Shown: positions 1,221-59,162 of the stretch, in pieces
How positions within the stretch are numbered: the stretch's first letter is position 1
Layout of the letters: every line of letters begins with the position of its first letter
IMG/VR virus record: IMGVR_UViG_3300045988_163836
Reading direction: 5' to 3' (one strand)
From: a virus
DNA length: 60,226 nt
The notes under the pieces: model-generated
The model's input: the letters and a program-made list of their open reading frames with translations, nothing else
Database searches by the model: none
Told to the model about the DNA's origin: nothing
Translations under genes and position numbers: made by a program

Positions 1221-2378
1221 ATGAGTTATTTATTTACCAGTGAGAGCGTTTTTGCCGGTCACCCTGATAAGGTTTGTGATTAGGTAAGTGATGCTATTCT
1301 GGATTATGTCCTCCAGCTTGACCCTGATGCACGAGTAGCTTGTGAATGTACTATTAGTCCAGGTCTTTTCCACATCATGGGAGAGATTACAGCTAAAACA
1401 GAACAATCTATTCCTTATCAGGAAATTGCAAGAGAGACTTTAAGATTTATTGGTTATGACAATGATGAAGCAGGATTTAACTGCGACACTTGTTCATATA
1501 TTATTAATGTAGTAAATCAATCCCCTGACATCGCTGCGGGTGTCGATAGGGATGGTGCTGGAGATCAAGGCATGATGTTTGGTTATGCAACTAACGAAAC
1601 AGAAAATTATATGCCTATTGCCCAGCAACTTGCTAACAATATCTCGGTCATTATGTTTAGTAAGTATAAAAATGATTTGCTACCTTGGGCATTACCTGAC
1701 GGCAAATGTCAGATAACTGTCCAATACGATGATGATGGCAACTTTGAAGGGGTAGATACAATTGTCGTATCGGCCCAACACAAAGACAAATATAGTATTA
1801 AGGAAATAACACCCGATATTACGAACATTTGTAATATTGCCCTTCAAGGTTATGCCATTAAGAAAGATTGTAAATTTTATATTAACCCAACAGGCAGATT
1901 CGTAATTGGTGGACCTGCGGCTGACATTGGATTAACCGGACGTAAAATCGTCGTAGATACATATGGTGGTTATGCTCCACATGGTGGGGGATGTTTTTCA
2001 GGGAAGTCGCCCTGTAAAGTAGATAGGTCTGGTGCTTATATGGCACGTTATGTAGCTAAAAATCTTGTAGCTTCTGGTGTTTGTGATAAATGTATGATTC
2101 AAGTTGCTTATATTATTGGGCAGACAGAACCTGTATCTATTAATATTAATTGTTTTGGTACAGAAAAGAAACCTATCGCTGAAATTCTTGAAGCAGTTAA
2201 TCAGACATTTGATTTTGCACCGCGTAGTATTATTCATAAATTTGATTTAAAACATACTCGCTATTTACCCTATGCTTGCTTCGGTCATTTTGGTCGTATT
2301 GAATGTAATAGTCCTTGGGAACAGCTTGATAAAGTAGAAGAATTAAAAACAATTTTTGATTTTAAAAAGGAGAACTAA
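1221..2378 (+). CDS. metK: S-adenosylmethionine synthetase (methionine adenosyltransferase), one in-frame TAG
   Basis: The N-terminus [30 protein letters not shown] aligns with E. coli MetK [29 protein letters not shown], with TAG at the Gln position. A GAGDQGMMFGYATNETE motif is present. SD aaaggagg is upstream. Confidence 0.85.
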
Positions 2379-8732: not shown

Positions 8733-10397
8733 ATGACAGATTTGAGGACACTCATTCCAGAAGAAGAAAAGAATCTGCTGCATGATTATATTAAAGAGTA
8801 CCTTCATTCTGATAATTACTGCACTGTAGATGAAATTAATCATCTTCTGCGGTTTTGGGCTGCTGAAAAGCCTGACCTGTATGAGTTGCTTGGTAATAAT
8901 TTGATGGTCGAAGACCATATTTCCTATCAGGCATCTGGAGATGATTTGATGGATAAATTCGGTGAAATGTATGAAGAAATTTATAATAATCCTGAATTAG
9001 CAAACGTCAAAAAATTCATTGATTCTTACGAGCAAATTACTAATATTTATTATTCTTGGATGGATACCACTCTTGATAAAGATGAACGTGTTAATTGTTG
9101 TAGCATGATTGACCATTGCCTTGATAGTGAATCTCTCGTAGCCAATAAAAATGTATATATGTTTGATTGGGGTCGCAAATCTGTTGTTATTCGCCGTGGT
9201 CCGCATGCAGATACTTCGAAGCCGCTTGAGTTGAAGAGTGATATGAAGCTGATGCGAATGATGGCTAAAATTGTCGATTGGTTTGAGCTGGATAAAGAAG
9301 CATTTGAGCAGTTTCGTATTCTTCATTCGCGTGTTTTGAATGATCGTATGATTAATGCTGATATTGTACTCTCTATTCATCCGCTTGATTATCTTACTAT
9401 GAGTGATAATGCTTGTGATTGGGAGAGTTGTATGAACTGGTATCAGGGCGGTGATTATCGTCTTGGCACTGTTGAAATGATGAATTCTCCTGTCATCCTT
9501 GAAGCATATGTTGAATCCGAGCATCCTTATTGTCCTATTGACCGTGACAAAAGAACTTGGAGTAATAAGCGTTGGCGGTGTCTTTATATTGTTAATAAGG
9601 ATATTATCACTGAAATTAAGCAGTATCCTTATAACAATATTTATCTGCGTGATTATGTGCTGAATAAAATTAAGCAGTTAGCTGAACAGAATATGGGCTG
9701 GCATTACGACGATAAGATGTATGAGGTTTGGCAGAATCAGAGCAATGATACTGATTTTGGTCAGGTTTATATCCGCATGAGAACTGGAGCTATGTATAAT
9801 GATTATTATGATAATCATTATGCTTATATCAATCCAGAAGTAAAAGAAGTAGAAGTTTACTATTCTGGTGTAGCTGAATGTATGTGCTGCGGTAAAGGCT
9901 ATGAAGCTGATCCGAGTGGAAATGTAGATGCATTTGTAGAATGTGATAAAGTCGTATGTGCAACCTGTGAAGGCAAAGTCCAGTGTGATGATTGTGGCTC
10001 TTGGATTGATAGTGAAGATGCTTGGTTCTGTGAAGGGGACGGTGCAACTTATTGTAGCTGGTGTGCAGATGGCCGCACTCAGACTTGTAGCTGTTGCGGA
10101 GAAACTAAATGGCTTGATTATGATTTCAAGAAGCAGGCTCTTCCCTATATGTTTGAAGTAAAAACTCCTAATGGTAAGCATCGTCGTGATGTTGGAAATC
10201 CCATTGATGTCTGTGATGATTGTTATGAAGATTATGATTTTGGTGATGCACCGAAGGAGCCAGACTTGTGGGGCGATTTTCAGTATATTGATGTTGACAA
10301 GGCAGATAAAAAGGTATGGGAGCCATTTCTGTCCCTTGAAAGAATTGCTGATGCCAAGATGCGGCTAAAGGCGACTTATCCTGATGATTATGTTTAG
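8733..10397 (+). CDS. paralog family protein 1 (SIHPLDY...CMNW core, C-terminal CxxC Zn-ribbon array)
   Basis: Shares SIHPLDYLTMSDNACDWESCMNW...GTVEMMNSP with the ORFs at 14749 and 18988. C-terminus is rich in CxxC pairs. Confidence 0.6.
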   Translation: MTDLRTLIPEEEKNLLHDYIKEYLHSDNYCTVDEINHLLRFWAAEKPDLYELLGNNLMVEDHISYQASGDDLMDKFGEMYEEIYNNPELANVKKFIDSYEQITNIYYSWMDTTLDKDERVNCCSMIDHCLDSESLVANKNVYMFDWGRKSVVIRRGPHADTSKPLELKSDMKLMRMMAKIVDWFELDKEAFEQFRILHSRVLNDRMINADIVLSIHPLDYLTMSDNACDWESCMNWYQGGDYRLGTVEMMNSPVILEAYVESEHPYCPIDRDKRTWSNKRWRCLYIVNKDIITEIKQYPYNNIYLRDYVLNKIKQLAEQNMGWHYDDKMYEVWQNQSNDTDFGQVYIRMRTGAMYNDYYDNHYAYINPEVKEVEVYYSGVAECMCCGKGYEADPSGNVDAFVECDKVVCATCEGKVQCDDCGSWIDSEDAWFCEGDGATYCSWCADGRTQTCSCCGETKWLDYDFKKQALPYMFEVKTPNGKHRRDVGNPIDVCDDCYEDYDFGDAPKEPDLWGDFQYIDVDKADKKVWEPFLSLERIADAKMRLKATYPDDYV

Positions 10398-10476
10398 TTT
10401 AAATTCTTGCCAAAATTGAATACTCGAAAATTTATAAAAAATTTGATATAATATATATAGAAAGGATGGGAGAGAT

Positions 10477-14748: not shown

Positions 14749-16392
14749 ATGACACCTTATGAAGCATTAACGGCCCAAGATAAGAAATATATTACTGAAT
14801 ATATTGAAAAATGGGGTGGCATTAATTCCCCCGTTAAACTTAAAGCCCCTCTTGATTATATCCTTCGAGAATGGAATAAGAGTAAGCAAACTCTGTTTGA
14901 TATTTTTGGTGAAAAGTTAATGCTGGAGAAGGAAATCCAGGTTGAAGATGGAGATAATAAAAAAATAAGAGAAGTTAGTGAATATCTCTATAGTTTTAAT
15001 CCTGGTATTAATTTTATTAAGAATCTTCGTAAGTTATTTGAGCTTAATAATATTTATTTTGACGATAGTTATGCAACAAAACATGCAATATATAATTTAA
15101 TTCAAGCTTATCAACTTTTTACTAATAGAGTTGCTAAAGGATTTATTTATCATAATAAAGATGGTAAGGCAGTTAAAGTTCCAGAAGGAGCCAAGGTAAT
15201 GAAAGTTCTTCAAAAAATGGCTAAAGAATTTGATTTACCTGATTTTGAAATTTTCCGCAATCATATTTCACGTATTACCGAAGTACGCAAATCTAAAATC
15301 AAATTTACTCTATCTATTCATCCTTTGGATTATATGACTATGAGCGATAATGCAAATGGATGGGAAAGTTGTATGAACTGGACTCAAGGACCAGGAAGTT
15401 ATCGTGCTGGTACTATTGAGATGATGAATAGTCCATTAGTTGTTATAGCATATATTACTACTAAACCTTATTATCCAGCAAACACTTCTATTGAATGGAC
15501 TTCTAAAAGCTGGAGAGAATTAATTATTGTCCATCCGAATGCTATTTGTTCTGTAAAATCTTATCCTTATTATAATATTGCATTTGATAAAGCTCTTGTA
15601 AATTGGCTTGTTGATTTGGTTGAAGAAAAAACTGAATGGCGTTATAACAGAAAAAAGCCACAAGAGAGTTTGGAAAGTTGCTCTTATATTGGAGCTTGGC
15701 AAGATAAAGAAGATAAGAATAATCATTTTCTGTTGGATTTTGCAACAAATGAAATGTATAATGATTTTGGTAATACAGAGAATTATGGAATTTTTTCAAT
15801 TAATTCACCAAACAATAAATATCGTACATTTACAATTAATTATTCTGGTTTAATGACTTGTATGTGCTGCGGCGAGGATGCTTATTGGTCTGATGATACT
15901 GAAATGGTGGTTTGTGAAGACTGTGATCCACCCACTTATTGTTATTGCTGTGGCGAACGAGTTAATGCAAATGATGCAATTGAAGTAGATGGTGAATTGG
16001 TTTGCGAAGATTGTTATCATGATTTGCATAGATGCTTATGCTGTGAGGATGCTCATTTTGATGAAGATTTCACTACTGTATTTGTTGGACATATTGAAAA
16101 TCAAACTATTAATATTGATTATGATGAACATTATATTTGTAGTGAATGTCTTGCTAATAAAGAATATTTAAAGTATCTTGGAGATACTGATATTAGAGCT
16201 GAAACAATTCGATTGGATGGCGGTCCTTATTATGGTATGGTGGCTCTTTTAATTGAAGAAGATGATTTAAATGTAGAGGCTAAAAAGATAATTTCTAATG
16301 ATCCTTATTCTACTATAATTACTGATTATACTTATGCTATTCGTCGTTATCCTGAGCGTTTTTATAGTTACAATAGGTCAATCGCGATTTAA
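14749..16392 (+). CDS. paralog family protein 2
   Basis: SIHPLDYMTMSDNANGWESCMNW...GTIEMMNSP plus a C-terminal CxxC array. Confidence 0.6.
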   Translation: MTPYEALTAQDKKYITEYIEKWGGINSPVKLKAPLDYILREWNKSKQTLFDIFGEKLMLEKEIQVEDGDNKKIREVSEYLYSFNPGINFIKNLRKLFELNNIYFDDSYATKHAIYNLIQAYQLFTNRVAKGFIYHNKDGKAVKVPEGAKVMKVLQKMAKEFDLPDFEIFRNHISRITEVRKSKIKFTLSIHPLDYMTMSDNANGWESCMNWTQGPGSYRAGTIEMMNSPLVVIAYITTKPYYPANTSIEWTSKSWRELIIVHPNAICSVKSYPYYNIAFDKALVNWLVDLVEEKTEWRYNRKKPQESLESCSYIGAWQDKEDKNNHFLLDFATNEMYNDFGNTENYGIFSINSPNNKYRTFTINYSGLMTCMCCGEDAYWSDDTEMVVCEDCDPPTYCYCCGERVNANDAIEVDGELVCEDCYHDLHRCLCCEDAHFDEDFTTVFVGHIENQTINIDYDEHYICSECLANKEYLKYLGDTDIRAETIRLDGGPYYGMVALLIEEDDLNVEAKKIISNDPYSTIITDYTYAIRRYPERFYSYNRSIAI

Positions 16393-17908: not shown

Positions 17909-18907
17909 ATGGGTAAAAAAGTTTTAGTTCCTGAGTTTACTGAAAATTGTAGAGGGCTTTTGGAAGGACTATTCAAGATTAGCGAAGTAGGTCTTTTGAA
18001 AGCTCTTGGTGATTTTGTATCTAATAAATATTCTAATGTAGAGATTACAGAAGATTATGTATATGCTGAAGGCAATATTCCTGTTATGCTTATCGCACAT
18101 GTAGATACTGTATTTAGACAGCCAATTCGTCAATTTACTTATAATGAGAAAAGAGCTGTTTATAAAGGCAAGGAAGGTCTTGGAGCAGATGATAGAGCAG
18201 GTGTTTTTGCGATTATTCAGATTTTACGCAAAAAGTATAGACCTTATGTTCTTTTTACAACAGATGAAGAAATGGGTGGCTATGGGGCACATATATTTGT
18301 TGAAGAACATCCAGTAGCTCCAAATATTAAGTACATGATTGAGCTTGATAGAGCTGGTGAAAGAGATTGTGTCTTCTATGAGTGTGAAAATTTTACGTTC
18401 ATGGATTATGTTGAAAGTTTCGGCTTTAAGCAAGCAATTGGATCATTTACAGATATTAGTATTATTATGCCTGAATGGGAAATTGCCGGAGTAAATTTAT
18501 CAGTTGGCTATCATCATGAACATACTCAAAATGAAGATTTGCATATTAGAACATTGTATAATACAATTAATAAAGTATGTAAAATGCTTGATGATATCGA
18601 AAATGCAGATAAATATAAATTTATTCCTAGCAAGGAATATCTTCAGTGGATTACATTAACTAATAAATATCATATGCCTTATGATTTTGATGATGATAAA
18701 CTTCTTAATTGTAGTTTTTGTAATCAGTTATATTATGAGTGGGAAGATTTTCCTCTTGATATTGATGGAGTAAAGGTCCATGTATGTCCTGAATGTTTAG
18801 CACTTGATCCTAATATTCATCAATGTGAAAGATGTTATAATTTATTTTATTCAAATAATATGAAAGAAAGAGTATGTAATAAATGTCGAGTCCCTATTGT
18901 AATTTAA
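17909..18907 (+). CDS. M20/M28/M42-family metallopeptidase-like protein with C-terminal Zn-ribbon
   Basis: Motifs IAHVDTVF, GADDRAG and FTTDEEMGGYGA; C-terminal CxxC...CxxC. Confidence 0.5.
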   Translation: MGKKVLVPEFTENCRGLLEGLFKISEVGLLKALGDFVSNKYSNVEITEDYVYAEGNIPVMLIAHVDTVFRQPIRQFTYNEKRAVYKGKEGLGADDRAGVFAIIQILRKKYRPYVLFTTDEEMGGYGAHIFVEEHPVAPNIKYMIELDRAGERDCVFYECENFTFMDYVESFGFKQAIGSFTDISIIMPEWEIAGVNLSVGYHHEHTQNEDLHIRTLYNTINKVCKMLDDIENADKYKFIPSKEYLQWITLTNKYHMPYDFDDDKLLNCSFCNQLYYEWEDFPLDIDGVKVHVCPECLALDPNIHQCERCYNLFYSNNMKERVCNKCRVPIVI

Positions 18908-18987
18908 ATGAAATTAAAGAACAAGTAAAGAAGGTTATTGCCTATTCATAGGGGCTGGATATTAACCTTTTAAATATTGATAAATTA

Positions 18988-20310
18988 ATGAATGATTGGG
19001 AAGAGAATAAATGCAAATTTTATAGCAGGCTTCCTGGTAATAAATTAATTTATCAAAGCCATGCACCTATTACAATGTCTATTTCAGAAGATGATAAAAA
19101 AGCTGAATTAGATTGTTTTATTGACAACATTCGTTGGCGTTATGGCTTATTTGAATTAAGAGATTTTGTTGAAAATAATAGAAAAGATTTTTATAATAAT
19201 ATTTTAAGCGAAGATTATCCAATGAATAATGGAACTATCATTCCAAAAGGAATGAAAATAATTAAAGCATTTAAATATTTTGTAGAAGATAAGGAAATTC
19301 TTACTGAAATACAAGATAAAGCCAGTATGCTCATTCAGAATACAAAAATTAGTGGATATTTTTGTATGTCAGTTCATCCATTGGATTATCTTAGTTTAAG
19401 TGAAAATACGCATAACTGGCGGTCATGCCATGCACTTGATGGAGAATATCGGGCTGGTAATTTATCTTATATGGCAGATAATTGTACAATTATATGTTAT
19501 ATTAAGAGTGAACATGACGCAGTTTTACCTAGATTTCCAGATGATGTGCCATGGGTGGATAAGAAGTGGCGTATGCTTCTTCATGTGTCTGATGATGATA
19601 CTATGGTTATTTCAGGTCGGCATTATCCTTATGAAAGTAAAGGATTACAAGATTTTGCTCTTGAACTGTATGAAACATTTTTCGGGCAAGGATACCGTTT
19701 TACTGATTGGTGTCATGAAAAATATAATACATTTACAATAAATGATAAAATTTTTTCTAATGAAGTTCGTTTATTGCCTACGGGATACGTAATGACCCCA
19801 GATATTAAGGTTATTGTTGACCCAAAAAATCCTTTGCATTACAATGACCCTCTTCATTCTACTGTATATGACTATTGGTTTAGTATTGCTTATAGTGAAC
19901 CTTATTGGCATGAAGAAGGTATTCCACAAGATAAGTTAATTCTTCCAAGAACTCGTACCACTACTAAAGTTAATATAGGACATGATGTAAAATGCTGTAT
20001 TTGTGGTAAAAATGATTGTGTTTTAACAGATACAATGCTTTGTATTGATTGCGAACTTAAATATGGTACAGAAGAAACAGAAGATTTTACTTTCTGTAGA
20101 GAGTGCGGTAGACGTATTTATATTCCTGAAGCAATATCATTAGATGATGATGATGGTTATGTATGCCGTAGTTGCGGAGACAATTATTAGATATGTGATA
20201 ATTGTAATATGTATTATGATAAAAAAGATTTAATTTATGATGAAGAAAACAATGCTTACTATTGTGAAGCTTGTTATGATGAAATTTTATTTGATAGGGA
20301 GAATGAATAA
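18988..20310 (+). CDS. paralog family protein 3 (TAG read-through at 20188)
   Basis: SVHPLDYLSLSENTHNWRSC core. Reading TAG as Gln extends the CxxC-rich C-terminus to TAA 20308. Confidence 0.55.
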
Positions 20311-20618
20311 TGGCAAAAGGTAGTATTGCTAAAGATGCTGTTGTAGAAAAAATTGCAGAAGCATTTGGTGAAGATTTCCTCGGATCTTATGATAAAAAGT
20401 ATTATGTGCGAGCTAAAGAAAATGGACAATATATTCAGATTGCAATTAGTTTAACTTGTCCGAAAACTCCTGTGGAAAATTTTGGTTCTATGGATTTTGG
20501 TAATAATGAACTTAATTTTGAAGATGGTGCAACAATTCAGTCTGTAAAGAAGGCTACAGAAATTAGTCCAGAAGAAGAAGAAAATTTAAAAGCTTTAATT
20601 GAAAAGCTTGGTTTATAA
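20310..20618 (+). CDS. hypothetical protein
   Basis: Track ORF; terminator hairpin 20620-20645. Confidence 0.45.
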   Translation: MAKGSIAKDAVVEKIAEAFGEDFLGSYDKKYYVRAKENGQYIQIAISLTCPKTPVENFGSMDFGNNELNFEDGATIQSVKKATEISPEEEENLKALIEKLGL

Positions 20619-20725
20619 GAGAAAGTCAAATTGACTTTCTCTTATTTTTATGTTATAATTATTTATATAGGGTATATTATATTAATTAAATAATTAAATT
20701 TCTTATATAAGAAAGGAATAAAAAT

Positions 20726-21007
20726 ATGAAGAAGATTATAATTCCTCAAGAAGAAGTAAATTATCTTTAGAAATTAAATTATGAAATTGAAGCTAGAAAA
20801 AATTTATGTCAATTTTTAATTAGACAAAATATTAGAAATAAAGCTTTTGATGATTATCATAATGAGTATATAGAATTATTTGCTGAATATGAATTAGCTA
20901 AATTAGAATTAGAAAATAATTATATCAAACCAGAAATTGGGAATCAAACTTGCAATTGGAATTTAGATTTTTATACAAATGAGGTAATTATTGATGTTAT
21001 TTCCTAA
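20726..21007 (+). CDS. small protein upstream of rSAM (RiPP accessory candidate)
   Basis: ORF with one TAG, overlapping the rSAM start. Confidence 0.4.
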
Positions 21008-22334
21008 AATAAGCCACATTCCTGAAGAATTTTCTGATTTTATAGGTCGTTTATATCCTGAAGATTGTTTAAATTCTTAGTCCGTATTTACATTAACATT
21101 TTAGGTTACAGATGATTGTTGTTTAAATTGTACTTATTGTTATCAAGGGCATAAAGGTAAACATAAATTATCTTTTGAAACAGCTAAACAGATGATTGAT
21201 TAGATATTAACCAGAGATAATAAAATTATTGGTTATATTGATTCTTATAAAATACCAGGAGTAATAATAGAATTTATAGGTGGAGAGCCATTTTTAGAAA
21301 TTGAATTAATTGATTAGATTACTGATTATTTTATTAATAAAATGATTGAATTGCGGCATCCTTGGGCTACTAAATATAAAATTTCAATTAGTTCTAATGG
21401 TATTTTATATTTTGAACAAAAAGTACAAGAGTATATTAAAAAAAATAATGAAAATTTAAGTTTATCAATTTCTATTGATGGAAATAAAAAATTACATGAC
21501 GCTTGTAGAGTTTTCCCTGATGGTAGTGGTAGTTATGATAAAGCATTGTCTGCCGCATTACATTATAGTCATAATTATAATAAATGGATTGGGAGTAAAA
21601 TGACTATCTCTCCATTTAATATAGATTATTTATATGACGCTGTTTTAGAAATGATAAACAATGGTTATAGTCAAATCAATCTAAATTGTGTGTATGAAAA
21701 AGGTTGGGAACTTAACCATGCCACTACATTATATTATTAGTTAAAAAAAATTGCTGATTATTTATTAAATAATGATTTGTGGGATAAAGTTTATTTATCT
21801 ATTTTTTATATTAATGATGGAAGTAAAAATTTATCTAATGATAATTGGTGTGGCGGGAATGGTCGTATGTTAGCCTTAAATTGGAAAGGTAAATATTATC
21901 CATGTTTACGTTATATGGAAGATAGCATAAGTAATCAGCCAGAATATTATATTGGAGATATTTATTAGGGAATAGGCCAAGATAATTTAACCATCAATAG
22001 ATTAAAAGATTTATCTGAAATAACAGTTATTAGTCAATCTCCTCAAGAATGTTTAGATTGTGAAATTTCTGGAGGATGCTCTTGGTGTACAGCTTATAAT
22101 TATCAAGAAACAGGTAATGTTAATAAAAGAGTTACTTATATTTGTGATATGCATTATGCTACAGTTCTAGCTTCTTTATATTATTTAAATTCTATTTTAA
22201 AAAAAATAAACTCGAATAAACGATTTAAATTTAATGGAGATAGGGAAAAAGCATTAAAAATTATCTCTTAGGATGAATATAATATAATAAAGGAGACAAT
22301 GACAAATGAAAATAGGAACGACAATAACTTCTGA
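20994..22334 (+). CDS. radical SAM / SPASM-domain peptide-modifying enzyme (8 in-frame TAG)
   Basis: CLNCTYC CX3CX2C cluster, GGEPFL, and a C-terminal SPASM-like CLDCEISGGCSWC...C..C. The track shows only a 132-aa fragment because of TAG codons. Confidence 0.7.
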
Positions 22335-22956
22335 TAGATTCAATGAATTAAAGAAAAAAATAAAGGCTGAATGTTTACGTCGTAAATATACCGGTAGTGT
22401 AAGTTCATATGGAGGGACTTCTTATGATTATACTACTTAGCCTGATAATGGAAAAGTTATTTCAAAAGAACACATAACAAAACTGGTAGAACCTATGGCG
22501 GCAATAAATATTGAAAATCAGAATGAAAATATAAATGTTATTAAAGATGATGATTTAAGTACATTAGAGGCAAAAATTACAGCTTATCAAGCTATGGGAT
22601 TAACTGATTCGAATACTGGATGTTCAGCTTATTGCACTGGATTATGTTCTACCAGTTGTAGCGAAAGTTGTGGAGTACAATGTTAGGGAACTTGTTTAGG
22701 TAGTTGTAAGAATACTTGCCAAGGAGGTTGTCAAAACACTTGCAGAGGCGGATGTCGAAGCAGTTGTAGTGGTAGCTGTAGCGGATGTAGTGGTTCTTGC
22801 TCAGGTGGATGCTATACAGGATGTAGTGGATGCAGTGGTAGCTGTACAAGACATTGTGCTAACGATTGTACTGGATTGTGTGGAGGAAGTTGTTCAGGTT
22901 TATGTAAAAGCTGTACTGGCACATGTAGTGGCACAGGTAGAAATGAACCATTATAA
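22306..22956 (+). CDS. Cys-rich repeat peptide/protein (candidate rSAM substrate), 2 TAG
   Basis: 216 aa with a Cys-poor N-terminal half, then about 40 Cys in G/S-C-x2-3-C repeats. Lies immediately downstream of the rSAM-SPASM gene with an SD. Confidence 0.55.
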
Positions 22957-23002
22957 TTTAAAAATATTTATCGAAAATACATATAACTGTAAGATATATT
23001 AT

Positions 23003-23644
23003 ATGTATCTTATACAAGATAATATTTTATTTTGTATAAGTAATTATAAGAATATAAATTTTCAAAAATATAATATGGATATTTAGATTTTATCTGTTTA
23101 TGAATATTTATGTCAAAAATATATTTTACATAAGGATATATTAAAACAATATAAAGGTATAGAATTATATAAAATTATGGAAATTCAAGATAAAATTTTT
23201 ATTAATAGATATAAATTATTATTGTAGATTATTAATAATAATTATAATTTTGATAATTAGTTAATATATACTGATTTTAATAATTTTAATTTTGAACAAA
23301 ATATTAGTTATATAAATTATTGTTTAAAATTGCTATTTAATAATTTTAAAAAAATAGATAAACAATTTTGGAAAATTTTAGATTAGATTTATTTTTTAAT
23401 TAATGGTAAAACTAATTTATTTTTATTGTTGGGAAATTTTTATTTGAATAAAAGTAATTTATAGCAATTTACTGAAGAAATAAAAAAAATTCCTGGAATT
23501 AAAGAATAGCTCTCTTTTAGTTATACAGCTTTAAATTTAGCTATTGAAATTGATAAAGTTGCAGAAAATAAAAATTATCTTAATGAATTAATTGAAATTA
23601 TTGATAATCATTCACAAGAAAAAATTTATAAATTTGATATTTAA
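23003..23644 (+). CDS. TAG-rich hypothetical protein
   Basis: 213-codon frame with no TAA or TGA but about 6 TAG, in sequence of about 80% AT; an uninterrupted frame this long is unlikely by chance. Confidence 0.35.
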
Positions 23645-23689
23645 TAAAAATTAATATATAATATATATACAAAATAAAGAAAATAAAGA

Positions 23690-23805
23690 CTTTAACAGCA
23701 AAAAATGGACAGTAAATCCGTCGCAAATGCTACGCAGGTTCGAATCCTGCCCTCCCCACCATTATATGGCGGAGGTAGGGAAGCGGTTAAACCCAGCGGA
23801 ACCAA
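23690..23805 (+). other. tRNA-like unit 1: T-arm/acceptor 3' half with CCA, followed by a tRNA 5'-half-like segment (possible permuted tRNA)
   Basis: tccgt-cgcaaatgctac-gcagg ttcgaat cctgc cctcccc a cca (to 23761), then gcggagg ta ggg aagcggttaaa ccc a gcgga. The gcgga/tccgt and gcggagg/cctcccc segments can pair. Confidence 0.3.
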
Positions 23806-23912
23806 ATCAAATAAGTCTTGTTTGAATAAAATAATTATTTGATTTTTAATAAAAAATATTATATAATATTTATATAAAAAGAGAAAGGCTTTTACAGCAA
23901 CTTAAACTTTTT

Positions 23913-23987
23913 TCCGTGGTCGAATAACTGGATAATTCATCAGAGTTAATTCTGAAAATAAGGATTCGAATTCCTTCCTTGGAGCCA
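23913..23987 (+). tRNA. tRNA-like unit 2, noncanonical 6-nt anticodon loop GUUAAU
   Basis: Acceptor tccgtgg/ccttgga, D gaat-aactggata-attc, anticodon tcaga-gttaat-tctga, T aagga-ttcgaat-tcctt, then g-cca. Leader and trailer are paralogous to unit 1. Confidence 0.4.
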
Positions 23988-24078
23988 AGTATAAAAAGTC
24001 TTGGGTAAATTTCTTAATTTGAAAAAATTAAAAAAATATAATATAATATATAAGTAATCAATAAGAAATTAAATAAAT

Positions 24079-24226
24079 GGGGTCGTGGCCAAGCGGTAAG
24101 GCCGGCAACTTATCCAAGATTAGTTTAAATGGTAAAATAGTCTATGCGCAAGAAAGATGTGAGTTCAAACCTAACATTTTGGGCCAAATTGCCAAATCGT
24201 TGGTTCGAATCCAACCGGCCCCACCA
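24079..24226 (+). tRNA. tRNA (Gln-like D-arm) with about 78-nt ORF-less intervening sequence in the anticodon loop
   Basis: Acceptor ggggtcg/cggcccc, D gcc-aagcggtaa-ggc, anticodon stem ggcaa...ttgcc, T gttgg-ttcgaat-ccaac, a-cca. Insert helix ccaagat/attttgg is adjacent to the anticodon stem. Anticodon is ambiguous (UAU, UCA or CCA depending on splice position). Confidence 0.55.
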
Positions 24227-31442: not shown

Positions 31443-32516
31443 ATGGCTGAAATTATTAAATTAAGACGCGGTAAATCAACTAGCTGGTCTAAAAAGAATA
31501 TAATTCTTGCAGCTGGTGAAATCGGCGTAGAACTTGATACACATTAGATTAAAGTCGGCGATGGTTCAACCCCTTGGAATGAACTATCTTATGTAGGCGG
31601 AACTAAAGTTGTTAATGTTCAAGAATACACTGATAATCCTGCGGTTGTAGATGGTGTGCCTTATCAATCTATTGATGTGGCATTTATGAAAGCTCCAGCA
31701 GGAAGTACAATTCGTCTTAATGCTAACTTTGATAACAGTGTTTCTATTGATAAAGCATTGACTATTGAATTAAATGGTAATGATATTATTAATAATGAAA
31801 AAACGCCAATAGATATCAAAGCAAACGGCGATTTAACTATTAAGGGCCAAGGTACTATTGAATGTAATAAGAATGAAAATGCCGCAGTTTTTAATAATGG
31901 TAATATTACTATTAATAATGGTAAATTACAACGTACTACTGATGTAGCAGGTAATGGTTATTATACTGCTGTTAATCATGGCACTATGACAATCAATGGC
32001 GGCATGTTTATGAGTGGTGGCGAATTTTCTAGCATGATTGAAAATGGCTATTGGGATTATCACGCTGGTAATACTACTAATGGCTATGTTCAAGGCCAAA
32101 ATGCTGAAATGCCTACATTAACTATTAATGATGGTACATTCGCTGGCGGCTTATATGCTATAAAAAATGATGATAATGCTGTTTTAAATATTAATGGCGG
32201 CACATTCTATAATACTATTCTTGCTAATGGTAAGTCAATAACTATCACTGATGGGTATTTTGAAAATAGTAAGCCAAGTCAAGGCGAATATAATTTTTAT
32301 CTTCGTAAATTAAGTGAAGATTTAAATCCTCAAAATACATATATTAGCGGTGGTACATTTATTACTGCACAAGATAAGAATTTCAAGGTTGAGGGCGACC
32401 CTCGTATTGAAATTAGTGGTGGTCGTTTTAATAGAGAATTAGATCCTTCTTATCTAGCTCCTGGCTATAGACAAGTACTTGTCAATGGCTTCTATACTGT
32501 CTAGAAGGAGGAATAA
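31443..32516 (+). CDS. tail fibre protein with HylP-like N-terminal domain (TAG read-through)
   Basis: MAEIIKLRRGKSTSWSKKNIILAAGEIGVELDTH-TAG-IKVGDGSTPWNELSYVGG resembles the streptococcal phage HylP/tail-fibre N-terminus. The pectate-lyase-like G-rich body matches track ORF 31656-32504. Confidence 0.6.
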
Positions 32517-32519
32517 TCT

Positions 32520-33035
32520 ATGGCTGATATCATCAAGTTCAAAAGAGGTCGATCAATTACATGGCGCGAAAAAAACTTATTGCTTAAGGATGGCGAGCCT
32601 GGATTTGAATTAGACACTCATAAACTGAAAATTGGTGATGGTAAAACCTTATGGAATGATTTACCATATATTGGTGGCGAAAGTGGTACAATTGATCTTC
32701 CTGATAATGTAATGGAATTTTTAGGCACAGTTGATACACTTCCAGCTACCGCTGAGGATGGAGAAATGTGTATTTATAATGGTAAATTATATATTTACGA
32801 TGGTAAATGGACAACTACAGAAACTTCCTCTCCAGCACAAAATTCTTTCAATTCTTTAGTAGATGCAATTAACTATATTACCTAGCATAATTGTGTTGGT
32901 CAAATTGTATCTATTTTTTAGAATAATAAATGGTTGCCTTATATTGTAGATGTAAATAATGATCTTGTACCTATTCAATATGGAGAAGATAGTTATGATA
33001 TCCTCAATGGCGGTGACGCAAATACTCTTAATTAA
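32520..33035 (+). CDS. tail fibre-associated protein (2 TAG)
   Basis: The same N-terminal motif, IIKFKRGRSITWREKNLLLKDGEPGFELDTHKLKIGDG. Reading TAG through gives C-terminus ILNGGDANTLN-TAA, homologous to the 34302 gene C-terminus LDGGNANTL-TGA. Confidence 0.6.
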
Positions 33036-33057
33036 TTTTATAGGAGGAAAATGATTT

Positions 33058-34278
33058 ATGGCTGATAAAACTCTTAATACTCGTATTCAAGTATTAAATG
33101 ATACTACTGCCAATCTTGCGGCGAAGAAAGATAAAGTTCCCCTTCGTGGTGAAATTGTCTATGATAGTGATCTTCATAAAATGAAGATTGGTGATGGTGA
33201 ATCCACTCTTGAAAACTTAACCTTTGTTGGCGGTGATGAAGCTAAAAATTTCGAAGCTATTCCAGCAGGTGAGGAAACTGATGTTCAGGCTATTACTCGT
33301 GTTGTAGCTTCTGCAGAACTTCATAATGGCGATACTGCTATTGTAAAGCGTGTTATTACTGGCGATAAGATTTCTTATACTGCTTATGTATATGATGGTA
33401 CTTGGAAAGCTATGGATGGCAATTATCGCGCTGACAATGTTTATTTTGATGATGACATTACTTATACCGTTGCTATTGGTACTCTTTCTAAGCCTTCGGG
33501 TTCTGCTAAATTTGCGGCGAAAGGTAAGAATGTCGAACAGGTGCTTTCTAGCCTAATGGCTCAAGAGGCTAATCCCACTAAGTCCAATCCTGCTGTTAGC
33601 TTCAGCGCACAGGGCGGCTTTGGTACATTTGAGATTGGTACTAAAAAGAATCTAACATATACAGCAGCTCTATCTACTGGTAGTTATACCTATGGTCCAG
33701 CTACTGGTATTGCGGCTTAGACTTGGGAAGTTAGTTGCACTGGTGTAACCGAAAAGAAAACAACTGCAACAGGTACTTTTGAAAATGTTGTTGCTGAAGC
33801 TACTGCTAAGAAGATTACAGCTAAAGCAACTTATAATGAAGGATCTATTCCAGTAACCAATTTGGGCAATCCTTATCCTGCGGGTAAAATTGCAGCAGGC
33901 TCTGCTTCTAAGGATAGTAATATTCTTCAGGGTGTTCGTTATATGTTCTGGGGTCCTATGACTTCTGATGCTGGACTTAACTCTGCTAATGTTCGTGCTC
34001 TTGCTCATAAACAAGCTTAGGGCGCTGGTACATTAGGCGCATTTGGTGCTGGAGCTGGCGCAAAGAAAGTTATCGTTGCAGTTCCTGCTGGTTGTAAGAT
34101 TACGAAGGTTCTTATGCTAAGTGCTCTTAATGCTGATGTTACAGCTCTATTTGTTAAACAAGGCACTACTGTTAGTGTTGAAGGTGCTGAAAGCTATGCT
34201 GCAGCTCCTTATGATGTATATGTCTATCAACCTGCTTCTATTGACGCTGGTGAAACATATAGCGTTACGATTGGTTAA
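33058..34278 (+). CDS. tail fibre protein (2 TAG)
   Basis: N-terminal MADKTLNTRIQ...KMKIGDG; contiguous frame through TAG at 33718 and 34018. Confidence 0.55.
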
Positions 34279-34301
34279 TTTTGAAGGAGGAATAATATAA
34301 T

Positions 34302-36935
34302 ATGGCTACTATTTTAAATAATGCTGCTTATATGGGTTTCCCGCTGTCTATTAAGCGTGGTAATCCTGCTCCTGTTGATACTACCGCTGTATGGTATAAT
34401 AAAACAGAATTAGAAACTTATGCTAAATCTGGCGCTACAGCTTATGTCGGTCAGATTTTAACTTTAGTTGTAGATAATAAGTGCGAAGCTTACATGATCA
34501 GTAATGCAGCTGGCACTCTTGTTAAGCTTGCTTCTACTACTGCTTCTGGTGACCTTGCTTCTGATGTCTCTACATTACAAGGTAAAGTTGCTTCTCTTAT
34601 TGAGAAGGTCGGTGCAGCTAAGGAAGGCGAAACCGCAGCAACTGGTTTATATGCATTAATTGAAGCTGCCCAAAAGCAAGCAGATAAAGGCGTCACTAAT
34701 GCAAAGACTGCTGATGATAAAGCTGTTGCAGCACAGGCTGATGTAGATGCCCTTGAAACTGTTGTTGGTGCTGATGATACTACTGGTCTTCGTAAGCGTA
34801 TTAAGACTAATGAAGATGCTATTGGTGTTCTGAAAGGCACTGGTGAAGGTTCAGTCGCGAAGGCTGTTAATGATGCTATTGATGCATTTGCTACCAAGGC
34901 TACTGATAATGGCACTATTGATACCTTCAAAGAATTAGTTGACTGGGTCGCAAAGCATCCAGAAGTTGTTAATGGTTTAACTGGTGATATTAATAAATTA
35001 AAAGCTATCCTTAAAGGATTTGGTACTGCTGAAGGCGAATCTCCTGAAGTAAAGGCTTATATTGATGGCGCCATTAAGGCTCTCAAAATTGGCGATTATG
35101 CTAAGGCTGCTGATTTAACTACTCTCGCCGGACGTGTTAGCGTAGTTGAAAATCTTCCTGCGGCTGGTATTACTGCTGAAGATATCGCTAAGTGGAATGC
35201 AAAGCAAGATGCGGGTAATTTTGTTGATCAATCTGCTTATGATACTAAGATGACAGCTCTTGATCAAGCTGATAGCGATAATGCAACTGCTATTGCTGCT
35301 GTGAAAAAAACGGCTGATGCGGCTGTCGTTGCCAATAAAGATATTACCGCTGGTACTGCTACTAAAGTTACTTATGATGCTAAAGGTCTTGTAACTAAAG
35401 GTGAGAATCTTGCTGTTTCTGACATTCCTACTCTTGGTATTTCCAAGATTGATGGTCTTCAGGATGCTCTCGATGCTAAGCAGAATAATTTAACATTTGA
35501 GGGTACTTATAATGCTGGCACTAACAAAGTTGCTACTGAAAGCACTGTTAATACTGCTGTTGATAATTTAATCCATACTCTTGGCGGCAAAGATGGTAAG
35601 ACTGATATTGATACTAAGGATAGCAATACTATCCATGGCGCAAAGATGTATGCAGATGAAGTCGGTAAGACTACTCTTGCTTCTGCTAAAACTTATGCTG
35701 ATGGTTTAGTTGGCGATACTTCTGCCATTGGTAAAAAAGTTGCCGCTCTTGAAGGTAAGGTTGATGTTGATAGCGTAAGTGGTGCAATTGATACAGCTAA
35801 GACCGAAGCTATTAATACCGCAGGCACTAATGCTGATACTAAAATTGCAACTGCTAAGACTGCTATTCTTGGTGAAGAACATACTGGCACTGTAAAAGAA
35901 GCTTATGAACTTGCTGCTTCCAAGGCTACAATGAAAGAAGTCGAAGCTAAGGGCTATGCTGTTAAGACTGAAGTTGATACGGCTGTTGCTGATGCAAAGA
36001 AAGCGGGCACTGAGGCTCAGACTTCTGTTAATGCATTAAGCGATAAAGTTGGCACTGTTTCAGCAGACAAGACAATTGTTTAGATGATTGCTGATGCTCA
36101 AAAGGCTGCTACTTATGATGATAGCACTGTTAAGGCAAGTATCAAAGCTAATGCTGATGCTATTACTAAGTTAAATGGTGCTGATACTGTTGAAGGCTCT
36201 GTGGCTAAGACAGTTAAGGATGCTGTTGCTGTTGAACAGAAGCGTGCAGAAGGTAAAGAACAAGCAAATGCTACTGCAGTTGCTGATGTTAAATCTCGTG
36301 TTGACACCTTCCTTGCAGCTGCAGAAGTCGGCGATGCTGCTGTTGATACCTTAAAAGAAATTCAGACTTACATTAGCACGCATGGCTCTGCTGCTGATCA
36401 AATGGTTAAAGATATTGCAGCTAATAAGAAAGCAGTTGAAGATGAAGCTGCTCGTGCTAAGGCCGAAGAAACAAAACTTAATACTGCAATTACCGATGAA
36501 ACCAGTCGTGCGACAGGTATTGAAAGTGGTTTAGCTACTCGTCTTACTACTCTTGAAGGCGCTGACACTGTTGAAGGTTCTGTAGCGAAAACTGTTAAAG
36601 ATGCTATTGATACCCTTAATATTACTCAGTATGCAAAAGATGCTGATGTTGTCAAGAAAGAAACTGGTAAGAGCTTAATTGCTGATACCAAGATTACTAA
36701 ACTTGATGGTATTGCAGAAGGCGCTCAAGTTAACGTAATTGAAAAGATTACAGTTAATGGTACAGAACAGACTCCTACTAAGAAGACAATAGCTCTTGAA
36801 AGCTATAAGGGTGATGGCACTTCTATTGAGAATAATGCTAATCATACTCTTAGCGTGAAGGCAGTTTCTACTGATCTTCTTAAATAGGGTGCTGATACTC
36901 TTATCCTTGATGGTGGTAACGCTAATACGCTTTGA
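34302..36935 (+). CDS. long tail fibre, coiled-coil Ala/Thr/Lys-rich (2 TAG), 877 aa
   Basis: Track ORFs 34302-36083 and 36084-36887 share one frame, joined by TAG. Internal repeats GADTVEGSVAKTVKDA. Terminates at TGA, with terminator 36951-36970. Confidence 0.65.
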
Positions 36936-41198: not shown

Positions 41199-43928
41199 TT
41201 GGCAAAACAAACAATTACTTTAACTAATTTATTAACTAATCCAAGTTTTGAAAAGACAGGTTGGACTGCTAATTCAGCTTGCTCAGTTAGTTACGCCACC
41301 TCTCCTAAACATTCCGGCTCTTATAGCTTAAAAGTCACATCTACCTCAAGTTCTGAATCATTAATTGTAACCTCTGACACATATGCTATCAGAAAAAATC
41401 ATATATATTATATAAGTGTTTATTTTTATGAAACTGTTAATGTATGTTCTGAAATGCAATGTTATTGGCCAATAGCAGAACCATTAGTAGGTATTGCTAA
41501 AGTAGATAAAACTAAATTAAATCAATGGCAGCGATTAAGTTGGCATAATGTACGTGCTAACTGGAATGATAATTAGACAGCTCAATTTAGATTTGATTTT
41601 GAAGGCATGGTGGGAAATACAGTAGCATATATTGATGATGCTATGCTTATTGATTTAACTGCTGCATTCGGCACAGGTAATGAACCTACTCAGGAATGGT
41701 GCAATACTAATATTGAATATTTTACTGGTAATAAAACAATTCAATATGAAGCTCCTAATAAATATGATTTAACTGTTACAACTCCTACAAAAATATAGAC
41801 TGGTGATATATTAAATTGTCCTTATAGTGGGTCTATGAAATCAGTAATTCTTCCAAAAGGATAGTATCAATTAGAATGCTGGGGCGCCTAGGGAGGCAAT
41901 GGAACTAATAATACTTCCTAGCCTGGCGGTAAAGGCGGTTATAGTAAAGGAATTATAACTCTAAATAAGAAAACTAATTTATATTTATATACCGGTGGAT
42001 AGGGCCTTAATGGAACTACTTATAATTCAAATGGAGCAACCACTGCTGGAGGATTCAATGGAGGCGGTTCTGCTACCTCAGTTAATAGTCGAGGAAGCGG
42101 TGGCGGCGGCACAGATATTCGCATTGCTGTCGATTCTTTATATGCTAGAGTTTTAGTCGCTGGTGGTGGCAGTGGTTCTAGTGGCTATACTAGTTTGGCT
42201 GGTTTTGCTGGTGGAGGAATATCAGGCAAGACATATAATAATCAAGACTCATCTAGTGGTGGCAGCTGGTATGGTGGTGGTGGTAGCCAAACCTAGGGTG
42301 GTGCAGCAAATACTAGTTATTCTAATTATACTACTGCAGGAAGCTTCGGACAAGGTGGAAATTATAATAGTGGTTCAAACACTTATTATGGCTCAGGAGG
42401 GGGCGGCGGCTGGTATGGCGGCGGTGGTGCTATCGGTGTTGGAGGTGGTGGTTCTGGTTATATGTACACTTCCAGCTCAGCCTCTTATTATCCTTCTGGT
42501 TGTTTATTGAATTCATCTTATTATTTAACTAATGCTACTATATTAGCAGGAAATGCTGCATTTATTTCTCCAACAGGTACAAGTGAAACAGGCCATGCAG
42601 GTAATGGCTATATACGTATTACCGTTATAGAAGCTAGTTCTGGAAATACTTTAGTGAAAACTACTTCGAATAATTGGAAAGAACCAGTACAAATGTTCGT
42701 AAATACTGGAAGTAGTACTACTATTTCTAGTGGATTAGTTGAATTAGAATACATTGAAAGTACCGGTACACAATATATTGACACTGGCATTAAAGCTTCA
42801 AAAAACCTAAAGGTTGAAGCTGATATAGATGTATCTGCTGCGAGTGGATGGGTTATGATACTAGGTGATTATACTAGTGGTTCATATTTTTCTTGGTGGA
42901 GACAAAATACGACTATGTATGCTTATTATGGAAGTAATAATAAAACGCTTGCAGAATTAACTGGGAAAAGAAAATATATTTCAAATAATACTAATAATAT
43001 ATGGAGCATTGACACTAGCAAAATAACTGTTACTCCAAATTCTAGTGATTTCTCAAAGGATGGAAATAATTTATATTTATTTAGTGTAAATAATGGTGGC
43101 AATTATAATAAAGCTTCAATGAAATTATATTCTTGTAAAATATATGATAATGGTACATTAGTTCGTGATTTCATCCCAGCTAGAAGGATATCTGATGGGA
43201 AAGCTGGCTTATGGGATAAAGTTAATCTTAAATTTTATACTGATGAAAATGGTGGCAATTTTACAGCAGGCACAGAAAAATCTGCTATTGCAGCAATAGG
43301 AACACCGATTGAATATATATAGTCTAGTGGCACATAGTATATTGATAGTAATTTTATTCCCAAAGCTACAACTCGCACTATTATGAAAGCTGAACCAATG
43401 TCTTGGAGTACTTGGGGTGCATTTTTTGGCACAAGAAATGCTACTTCTCCTACTGCTTCTCAAGCTTATAATGCTGCAATTCCAGCCGCTACATTATATC
43501 GTAGTGATTATTTTGGTTCATCATTAACTGCTGAAACTCCTACTGTTATGCAAATAACAAATATTGATAAAAATAAAAATATATGTTCATTTAATAATAT
43601 TATGATTACCAATACTTCTAGCACAGTAAATGCTACAACTAATATGTTTTTATTGGCATTAAATGATGTTGGAACCGCTAAATACTTTTTAAGTGCAAAA
43701 TTATATTCTTGTCAAATTTATGATGGAAACACTTTAGTCCGCGATTTTATTCCAGTTAAAACTACAACTAATATTTATGGTCTATGGGATAAAATAAATA
43801 AAGTATTCTATAAAAACGCCGGAACAGGCACCTTCACTGGCGGACCTGCTGTTACCTTGACCGGCTGGCATAAAATAAAAGGTATATGGGCAAAAACTGC
43901 CGCAAACACATGGAGTTAGGCATTATAA
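41199..43928 (+). CDS. giant Gly-rich fibre/receptor-binding protein with duplicated C-terminal domain (TTG start, about 15 TAG), about 909 aa
   Basis: Track ORFs 41199, 41607, 42462 and 43383 are all in frame 0. The G-rich segment 41877-42460 holds TAGs and Gly runs. The duplicated C-terminal module has shared motifs such as GTQYIDTGI/GTQYIDSNF and KLYSC(K/Q)IYD(N)GTLVRDFIP, with GLWDK. Confidence 0.55.
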
Positions 43929-51376: not shown

Positions 51377-51386
51377 AATATAAGTA

Positions 51387-59087: not shown

Positions 59088-59162
59088 TCCGGCTTTGGGT
59101 AACGGTTAGCTCAGCTGACTCTAAATCAGCAAGTCTCAGTTCGACTCTGAGAGCCGGTGCCA
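59088..59162 (+). tRNA. amber suppressor tRNA (anticodon CUA), glutamine-type identity
   Basis: tccggct tt gggt-aacggtta-gctc a gctga-ctctaaa-tcagc aagt ctcag-ttcgact-ctgag agccggt g cca. Loop CUCUAAA; weak 1-72 pair (U-U) and G73, as in tRNA-Gln. Confidence 0.8.

Follow-up and report, generated by a model that had tools for sequence, protein, structure and literature searches.

A TAG-recoded radical SAM/SPASM enzyme and its adjoining CXXX-repeat protein in a gut phage: a candidate system for modifying a virion protein

A radical SAM/SPASM enzyme of the TIGR04115 family, encoded by a recoded gut phage, very probably acts on the adjacent protein with a period-4 Cys repeat (TIGR04114), as judged from family membership and gene co-occurrence. 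Both genes stand with a third for a small partner protein, and sequence comparison indicates that the family of such trios is common in phages of Clostridia, where it is usually sited among tail-fibre genes; taken alone, the locus is unremarkable within a family that NCBIfam and PHROGs already define. We tentatively propose that phages of anaerobic Firmicutes co-opted RiPP-type radical SAM chemistry, such that a tail-fibre-associated virion protein would be stapled by dozens of thioether or other Cys-derived crosslinks. A previously undescribed adaptor of 90-130 aa would replace the RRE, and here the system would operate under TAG suppression in a phage that encodes its own SAM synthetase.

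Layout and TAG recoding of the locus

In order to describe the locus, the window (the whole stretch of 60,226 nucleotides in IMG/VR record IMGVR_UViG_3300045988_163836) was translated with TAG as Gln, which gave three overlapping genes at 20726-22956 encoding proteins of 93, 446 and 216 aa. These and other features of the window are as follows.

1221..2378, + strand: phage S-adenosylmethionine synthetase (MetK), with three Pfam S-AdoMet_synt domains (E 1e-34 to 1e-59)
20615..20645, + strand: terminator-like hairpin closing the upstream 102-aa gene, a 14-bp stem followed by a T run
20631..20659, + strand: best sigma-70-like promoter match (TTGACT, 17 nt, TG-TATAAT), 11/12 consensus positions
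20726..21007, + strand: small partner protein, 93 aa, 1 TAG
20994..22334, + strand: radical SAM/SPASM enzyme, 446 aa, 7 in-frame TAG
22306..22956, + strand: CXXX-repeat protein, 216 aa, 2 TAG
22306..22620, + strand: N-terminal domain of the CXXX-repeat protein, residues 1-105, with E22, R25, R26 and P63 invariant across 42 relatives
22621..22926, + strand: CXXX repeat region with 27 Cys (residues 106-207), presumed from its spacing, TIGR04114 and phrog_6085 to be the enzyme substrate
23003..23644, + strand: lineage-specific ORF, 213 aa, 6 TAG, outside the conserved system
41199..43928, + strand: tail-fibre-block protein with CBM_4_9 and ALK_LTK glycine-rich domains, from domain matches
59088..59162, + strand: suppressor tRNA with anticodon CUA, required by all three genes of the trio, whose TAGs lie at conserved Gln positions

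The small ORF overlaps that of the enzyme by 14 nt, and the 3' end of the enzyme gene overlaps the Cys-protein gene by 29 nt. The latter gene was originally predicted to be driven by a Shine-Dalgarno sequence, and AAGGAG is located 10 nt 5' of its ATG. The hairpin upstream was one of two terminator-like sites found in 3.6 kb, where shuffled sequences gave an expectation of 0.5. The promoter match lies 67 nt from the first gene of the trio and is a consensus match alone, promoter-like sites being no more numerous in the region than in shuffles. The match suggests that the three genes (in the order small-enzyme-CXXX) form a separate transcription unit.

The reading of TAG as Gln had been claimed at the outset and is genuine, since a CUA tRNA is encoded and the TAGs fall on conserved Gln columns. 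The TAG at enzyme codon 37 corresponds to a column with Gln in all 10 aligned relatives, and that at codon 108 to a column with Gln in eight of the 10. Expression requires TAG suppression, also as originally claimed, because the first TAG is already at enzyme codon 29; all three proteins of the trio are produced only if the CUA suppressor tRNA reads TAG as Gln. The TAG density of the enzyme gene (7 of 446 codons) is like that of the tail-fibre genes and those after them, and higher than in the upstream genes.

The G+C content of the region is 26%, and many spurious ORFs are lengthened in it by TAG read-through. Two overlapping ORFs, 22670-23644 (+) and 22577-22951 (-), were frame artefacts. 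We give practically no weight to the idea that the Cys ORF or the small ORF is likewise an artefact or a decaying remnant, which is refuted by conservation data: both proteins have invariant residues and are conserved in hundreds of clusters with identities of 25-60%, both are in fixed association with the enzyme, and their TAG positions coincide with Gln columns.

The 213-aa ORF downstream was 98-99% conserved in loci L001-L003 and 37% in L004, with no homologue at any other locus and no family match in NCBIfam, Pfam or PHROGs. An immunity or export function, as once suggested for it, thus finds no backing.

The enzyme and its probable Cys-repeat target

The enzyme scored 431.3 bits (cut-off 350) against NCBIfam model TIGR04115, "radical SAM peptide maturase, CXXX-repeat target family", with a match spanning model positions 3-359 of 359, which bears out its first description as a radical SAM/SPASM maturase. 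It also matched Pfam Radical_SAM and phrog_1802 (1e-63). The domain searches that had been suggested as a check were thus positive for Radical_SAM, but no match to the SPASM model was reported by the Pfam search at E<=0.01, although the Cys pattern of such a domain is present. We assigned the SPASM domain because of this pattern and because the alignment with CteB runs to CteB residue 447 of 453.

Both the CX3CX2C SAM-cluster motif and a seven-Cys SPASM pattern were found in the enzyme. The predicted CLNCTYC cluster is present, but the triad begins one residue earlier, at C42-x3-C46-x2-C49 (CCLNCTYC). Also as predicted, GGEPFL was found at residues 96-101 and a C-terminal SPASM-type motif, CLDCEISGGCSWC, at residues 353-365. 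The Cys residues kept in all 10 aligned relatives are C42/C46/C49, those of C286-x12-G-x4-C304 and of C353-x2-C356-x5-C362-x2-C365, and C384. The SAM that the phage's radical SAM enzymes consume may be supplied by its MetK.

The neighboring 216-aa protein passed the TIGR04114 cut-off marginally (20.6 bits against 20) and matched phrog_6085. It contains 28 Cys rather than the roughly 40 first counted, and all except one are located within residues 106-207, in agreement with the description of its N-terminal half as Cys-poor. Successive Cys in this region are spaced by 4 in 23 of 26 cases and by 3 in the remainder, and a spacing of 4 accounts for 83% of cases family-wide (171 members). Targets across the family range from 160 to 830 aa with 20-95 Cys, and many homologues of the Cys protein carry the precomputed Pfam domain PF27846.1. 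The repeat is conserved at the protein level in 574 clusters and is not a DNA-slippage array. AF2 predicted four helices in the N-terminal domain (pLDDT 70-91) and gave pLDDT <50 for the repeat region. The N-terminal domain had no match among solved structures, known fibre domains included, by fold or by sequence, and for the protein as a whole no fibre-domain match was found in Pfam, PHROGs or fold searches.

That the adjoining Cys-repeat ORF is the target of the enzyme, as first claimed, is well supported by family membership and co-occurrence. NCBIfam defines TIGR04115 and TIGR04114 as a pair. Across 161 loci, nearly every enzyme scoring at least 500 bits had, no more than 4 kb away and in the same orientation, ORFs for a small partner and a CXXX protein, while those below about 460 bits mostly lacked them. 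Gene order differed by lineage (small-enzyme-CXXX, CXXX-small-enzyme or small-CXXX-enzyme), and the trio was kept together nonetheless.

Since both cut-offs were passed, the locus belongs to a kind that is already defined by sequence, with which it shares the adjacency of the two genes and the Cys period of 4. It differs from these families at large in being written with TAG as Gln and carried by a gut phage of large size, with related contigs of 105-155 kb, and from their definition in having a third conserved component, which matches no NCBIfam, Pfam or PHROG model. A pair of this kind in a virus had been regarded as unusual, but viral carriage turned out to be the norm. Relatives of the enzyme are encoded by at least 101 IMG/VR contigs, of which 80 were kept, nearly all with a CXXX ORF as well, and PHROGs families already exist for the enzyme and the Cys protein. 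For copies in bacterial genomes, the flanks resembled those of IMG/VR viral loci in 42 of 48, and most of the copies checked in Clostridia genomes have phage-like flanks.

A search of GenBank phages with the locus DNA gave nothing useful. At the protein level, GenBank yielded only two unannotated faecal metagenome records with 35-37% identity, along with unrelated jumbo-phage radical SAM genes; one of these two records, MT835573, encodes a divergent enzyme and a CXXX protein. For homologues held at NCBI, source names were missing or read 'hypothetical protein'. Our literature search on the enzyme/CXXX-target family returned no report of the system and no experiment on any member.

The small partner protein

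The small overlapping ORF upstream, which was flagged in the original prediction, encodes a conserved third component. In almost all close relatives a homologue adjoins the enzyme gene, sited just upstream of it and often with an overlap. The family comprises 106 protein-database clusters, all without a name or Pfam domain, and contains an invariant Trp. The predicted topology of the 93-aa protein is a strand, two long helices and a beta-hairpin, with an AF2 pLDDT of 96 (on a 96%-identical homologue). Searches of solved structures with this protein and the Cys protein, by sequence and by the fold of AF2 models, returned nothing informative, and a BFVD search returned only unnamed gut-virus homologues. 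One locus (L108) has the small partner gene duplicated in tandem.

There is no RRE fused to the enzyme, which has only about 35 residues ahead of its cluster motif. Because the alignment with CteB starts at CteB residue 86, the enzyme is without a counterpart of the N-terminal 85 residues of CteB, which we take to be its RRE domain. Since the enzyme is without a fused RRE and the partner is nearly always co-encoded, the 93-aa helical-hairpin protein is probably the enzyme's adaptor or chaperone. Its identification as a PqqD-type RRE was rejected, as it has neither a PqqD sequence match nor the winged-helix fold of three strands and three helices. No fusion of the small partner to the enzyme was found in relatives, where TAG stops intervene.

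Likely reaction and fate of the product

The closest solved relative of the enzyme is CteB (5wgg), which aligns over 380 residues (E 6e-36) including the radical SAM core and the full SPASM domain, and both systems have a Cys-rich substrate. The differences are that the enzyme reached 108.4 bits against TIGR03974 (cut-off 425), that it has no RRE at its N-terminus, and that its substrate has 216 aa and 27 repeat Cys where the SCIFF peptide has about 45 aa and six Cys. The second-best NCBIfam match was to the PapB/freyrasin model NF047865 at 161.9 bits, under its cut-off of 340. In the PapA precursor, PapB joins the Cys of recurring motifs to Asp or Glu (PMC9413430), whereas in the phage protein the residue at i+4 is Cys, not Asp or Glu, and no acidic acceptor is conserved; the phage system also has a separate helper protein in place of the RRE. 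At no intervening repeat position did Asp exceed 9% or Glu 5%, and none was consistently acidic, nor did the composition of the repeats show a conserved Asp/Glu or Thr residue that could act as acceptor in the manner of PapA or SCIFF. Thioether crosslinks are the most likely reaction because the nearest characterised enzymes (CteB, SCIFF maturases and PapB) make thioether links, and by this analogy we give thioether chemistry about an even chance.

Dense CxxxC arrays also resemble metal-binding proteins, and the product may instead be an intracellular metal-, Fe-S- or redox-active Cys-rich infection protein, with the enzyme carrying out formylglycine formation, desulfurisation or methylation and no crosslinking. 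SPASM enzymes do include the anaerobic sulfatase maturase, and a repeat region that is unstructured in AF2 would be expected of cofactor-dependent folding. We consider this improbable, as the enzyme reached only 64.7 bits against the anSME model (TIGR03942, cut-off 349.45) and the residues between the repeat Cys are Gly/Ser/Thr, with no conserved His, Asp or further ligand pattern. A cytoplasmic metabolic role is also a poor fit to the fusion with tail-fibre domains and the synteny with tail modules.

This fusion is found in the L041 lineage (about 35 contigs), where the CXXX repeats continue into two ALK_LTK glycine-rich domains (PF12810) with no table 11 stop between them. The same domain type occurs in the tail-fibre-block protein of the window (41199-43928). 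In contrast to these fibres, the CXXX protein of the window is stand-alone at 216 aa, has its own N-terminal domain and is encoded 8.5 kb upstream of the fibre genes, with a tRNA and homing-endonuclease island between. Apparent fusions of tail fibres to CXXX repeats in L090, L111 and L120 were rejected as TAG read-through artefacts, a TAG stop separating the genes each time, which leaves a single lineage to supply the fusion evidence. The trio was located between baseplate/tail-fibre genes and holin/endolysin genes in six loci (L006, L024, L028, L037, L041 and L096), and synteny with fibre genes was seen in several unrelated phages. Locus L096 is a prophage of Neglectibacter timonensis.

A released RiPP-like product was the main reading in the original prediction. 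On this view the first 105 residues would form a long leader and the Cys-rich core would be crosslinked, and the product, let go at lysis or by lysogens, would serve as an antimicrobial or signal. The enzyme falls in a SPASM clade whose characterised members make RiPPs and carries the NCBI name 'peptide maturase', and some loci (L072) encode several successive CXXX paralogues, like precursors in RiPP clusters. Like the long leaders of the Nif11/NHLP type, the N-terminal part is conserved and poor in Cys, and in temperate phages the slot that separates tail fibres from lysis genes is also used by cargo genes. RiPP clusters have a short precursor, a cleavable leader and genes for a protease, exporter or immunity, whereas here the precursor is 216 aa and its 105-residue domain is predicted to be folded, with no GG-type cleavage motif at the junction with the repeats. 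No leader peptidase or other protease, transporter/exporter or immunity gene was found among the neighbors examined (the window flanks, L006, L024, L028, L041 and L096). Targets of the L041 type have no leader at all and run on into tail-fibre domains, and repeat regions reach about 95 Cys, far above any known RiPP core. The window genes, in turn, need TAG suppression for translation, which argues against expression in a lysogen. We therefore regard a released peptide as unlikely, and the N-terminal 105 residues may act in docking or assembly instead of being cleaved off as a leader.

Between the two readings, a secreted RiPP and a modified virion or tail-fibre protein, we favour the second because of the large targets (160-830 aa), the tail-fibre modules, the L041 fusion and the lack of a protease or exporter among the genes found. 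The last alternative of the original prediction, a crosslinked structural protein, thus fits the genomic context best. The three genes, if co-transcribed, would constitute one maturation module, in which the enzyme, by analogy with its relatives, would install many Cys-derived thioether crosslinks in the repeats. Through them the Gly/Ser/Thr-rich repeat would become a rod held by covalent staples, and the product, judged from its context, would be not an exported peptide but most likely a virion component associated with the tail fibres. Disulfides are unreliable under the reducing, anaerobic conditions of the gut, and thioethers would keep the product covalently stable there. Against the structural reading are the repeats without a PapA/SCIFF-type acceptor, the searched literature without a family experiment, the position of the trio off the tail-fibre block, the cargo-hosting slot, the one-lineage fusion, and an N-terminal domain without a structural match to known fibre domains. 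On balance, a structural or tail-fibre role for the product could go either way, and the odds that the structural reading as a whole is right are about level.

If this reading is true, a radical SAM "peptide maturase" works on a structural virus protein, and in its anoxic, reducing habitat the virion would gain covalent stability without reliance on disulfides. Gut viromes contain the family in abundance, with 574 clusters of target proteins in addition to the enzyme contigs counted above. Cultured bacteria with the trio in or near prophage-like DNA, namely Neglectibacter timonensis SN17 (L096), Desnuesiella massiliensis mt10 (L090), Anaerobacterium chartisolvens DSM 27016 (L111) and Vallitalea maricola AN17-2 (L110), are the practical way into it, since the related phage records found include no cultured phage. 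The conserved small partner, if its role is as proposed, would represent a novel type of protein that handles substrates for SPASM enzymes without an RRE.

A recoded three-gene module

The genes for a small partner protein, a radical SAM/SPASM enzyme and a CXXX-repeat Cys protein (together, the trio) make up a module that is real, complete and conserved. Consecutive ORFs overlap by 14 nt (partner and enzyme) and 29 nt (enzyme and Cys protein) and a hairpin and a promoter-like match lie just upstream, so the trio looks like a single transcription unit.

Features of the trio and its expression (ORFs translated with TAG as sense)
20615-20645, strong terminator-like hairpin, just upstream of the first trio gene
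20631-20659, best promoter-like match of the region, just upstream of the first trio gene
20726-21007, plus strand, small partner, 93 aa, 1 TAG
20994-22334, plus strand, radical SAM enzyme, 446 aa, 7 TAG
22306-22956, plus strand, Cys protein, 216 aa, 2 TAG
23003-23644, plus strand, downstream ORF, 213 aa, 6 TAG
59088-59162, suppressor tRNA, anticodon CUA

TAG is a sense codon in this phage, and many long plus-strand ORFs of the window are visible only with TAG read-through. The alignments indicate that it is read as Gln, because two TAG codons of the enzyme gene sit on Gln columns of relatives: Gln is invariant at codon 37 (10 of 10 aligned relatives) and occupies the column of codon 108 in 8 of 10. 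With in-frame TAG in all three genes, we consider the need for suppression established, as originally proposed. The suppressor tRNA is identical to the phage tRNA-Gln(UUG) (56919-56993) at only 33 of 75 positions, so it did not arise from that gene by a recent anticodon mutation. G+C is 26% across 20000-24000, against 31-35% in the flanks, and this stretch resembles the TAG-rich block at 44-54 kb in both G+C and TAG density.

The maturase and its CXXX-repeat target

The enzyme passes the NCBIfam model TIGR04115 ("radical SAM peptide maturase, CXXX-repeat target family") with 431 bits (cut-off 350), and is below cut-off in every other maturase model: PapB (162 vs 340), SCIFF (108 vs 425) and anaerobic sulfatase maturase (65 vs 349). 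The Cys protein is barely above the cut-off of TIGR04114, the model for the Cys-rich repeat target (20.6 vs 20). PHROGs matches are phrog_1802 for the enzyme and phrog_6085 for the Cys protein, and through these four families the pair is already defined in public libraries; we found no paper on it in the literature. We consider the enzyme-target pairing established, and the original prediction had identified it correctly. The trio is a new member, recoded at TAG, of a family so far defined from sequence.

The seven-Cys SPASM pattern is complete in the enzyme. A SAM-cluster motif is present as predicted, but its string had to be corrected, the triad being C42/C46/C49. The closest solved structure is that of CteB (5wgg, E 6e-36), but the alignment begins only at CteB residue 86; the phage enzyme therefore has no counterpart of the RiPP recognition element (RRE) domain, which we take to be the N-terminal 85 residues of CteB. 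If the enzyme works as CteB, the SCIFF maturases and PapB do, its reaction would install multiple thioether crosslinks.

Inteins interrupt the CX3CX2C cluster-binding loop of CXXX-family enzymes in three phages (L072, 5356-7521; L075, 4804-7200; L077, 4768-7188; L numbers denote IMG/VR contigs or bacterial genomes encoding a relative of the enzyme). Their insertion points vary from phage to phage, and by inspection at least one has a LAGLIDADG-type endonuclease. The window phage also encodes a complete S-adenosylmethionine synthetase (1221-2378, plus strand, all three MetK Pfam domains) alongside at least two radical SAM genes. The second, fused to a GT2 glycosyltransferase (667 aa, 12 TAG), is the first gene of a plus-strand block (44955-54570) of very low G+C (20-25%) and TAG-dense genes.

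The Cys protein has 28 cysteines rather than the predicted 40 or so. The x2-3 spacing first assigned to its repeats is corrected to a strict period of 4: residues 106-207 have 23 spacings of 4 and 3 of 3. The target is no short peptide but a family of proteins, for which the search returned 574 clusters. An N-terminal domain of about 100 residues is conserved in the clusters examined, with E22, R25, R26 and P63 invariant, and the repeats open with a conserved G-C-x-A-S-C-T-G-L-C motif. AF2 predicts four helices for this domain (pLDDT 70-91) and gives no model of the repeats; no solved-structure match was found to either part. Among 171 family members, Cys-Cys spacing is 4 in 83% of cases, the intervening residues are Ser, Thr, Gly, Ala, Asn and Asp (middle position Gly in 43%), and the repeats contain no conserved acidic acceptor. 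No long DNA tandem array was seen in the window repeat, so the period looks to be maintained at the protein level.

The small partner and the spread of the family

The small upstream ORF had been suggested as a component of the locus, and conservation shows it to be a real third one. In every class of related locus, a homologue of 89-130 aa sits directly upstream of the enzyme gene, with which it often overlaps. The partner profile matches 106 clusters in a 5.8-billion-protein database, none with a Pfam domain or with any source name other than "hypothetical protein". The protein may act as an adaptor in place of the RRE that the enzyme lacks. In L108 (7301-7984) the partner is tandemly duplicated (228 aa, two domain copies), which hints that it normally acts as a dimer. 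A fourth small gene of about 100-120 aa, starting 'M..V.LKDG...', directly follows the enzyme gene in Clostridia phage or prophage-like loci (9272-9640 in L096, Neglectibacter timonensis; also L037, L038, L085, L087, L098, L100 and L109) and is absent in the window.

At least 101 IMG/VR contigs encode an enzyme relative. L001-L003 represent the same lineage of phage (94-98% identity, on contigs of 105-145 kb), the L004 relative is 66% identical and the remainder are near 50%. Nearly all of the 80 kept IMG/VR loci have a same-strand CXXX ORF. Bacterial matches, from one-genome-per-species contigs, amount to at least 596 stretches, the best being from Clostridia (Oscillospiraceae, Lachnospiraceae, Blautia, Neglectibacter, Desnuesiella, Anaerobacterium and Vallitalea). 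In an HMM census of all 161 loci, enzymes of at least 500 bits almost always had both partner and CXXX protein, and those below about 460 bits mostly belonged to other maturase families with short Cys peptides. Flanking ORFs resembled those of viral loci in 42 of 48 bacterial-genome copies. Given this and the IMG/VR abundance, viral carriage is typical for the TIGR04115/TIGR04114 family, and its description as unusual was overstated. No cultured phage was found among the related GenBank phage records.

Genomic context and the predicted product

The context across loci points to the tail-fibre apparatus. Tail-fibre or tail proteins flank the trio on one side in L006, L024, L028, L037 and L041, with an endolysin on the other side in L037 and L041. 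In the N. timonensis isolate genome, the trio comes after the genes for baseplate J, tail protein I and a fibre, in the order CXXX protein, partner, enzyme, and is followed by a conserved 122-aa gene, collagen-like fibres, holin and GH25 lysin. The L041 lineage, of about 35 contigs, has an 816-829 aa protein whose N-terminus consists of the CXXX repeats and which runs into two ALK_LTK glycine-rich domains with no stop codon (table 11). Apparent tail-fibre::CXXX fusions in three bacterial genomes, which arose in stop-to-stop translation reading through TAG, were rejected because each has a TAG stop under table 11.

The window trio lies 8.5 kb upstream of a tail-fibre block (31443-43928) that includes a protein with the ALK_LTK glycine-rich domain type. 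The L073/L074 lineage has the same flanks, with an M28-like peptidase, a 475-aa and then a 102-aa protein before the trio and tRNA-rich sequence after it; the trio-internal order is different there. The downstream 213-aa ORF is conserved in L001-L004 only and has no family match, so the immunity or export role suggested for it was overstated.

Trio and tail-fibre block are separated by a tRNA array at 24.0-30.6 kb, in which genes for HNH and GIY-YIG homing endonucleases are scattered. One of its tRNAs (24079-24223, plus strand, Rfam 46.6 bits, no ARAGORN call) has a 76-nt insertion in the anticodon loop. Two plus-strand tRNA-like 3' halves (T-arm, acceptor strand, CCA) at 23734-23830 and 23968-23995 lack a 5' half upstream; after the first comes a 5'-acceptor-strand-like piece, a permuted layout, and their sole database match is a weak, non-significant one to permuted tmRNA (E 0.62). 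Three large plus-strand paralogues (8733-10451, 14749-16392 and 18883-20310) share a 'SIHPLDY..SDN..W.SC' core and end in arrays of CxxC zinc-ribbon-like motifs. None has an informative family match; only the third matched anything, phrog_18912, of unknown function.

We infer that the product would be a structural protein associated with the tail fibres. Its main rival, a RiPP-like product with a long leader that is released at lysis, would fit the enzyme family and L072, a locus with several paralogues. However, processing or export genes were not found among the neighbours examined (no protease or transporter), the L041-type targets are fused to fibre domains without a leader, and the repeat regions are very large. 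It is the whole family that is of interest, as a possible case of virion proteins matured by radical SAM enzymes; this could be tested directly in several cultured bacteria that have the trio in or near prophage-like DNA.
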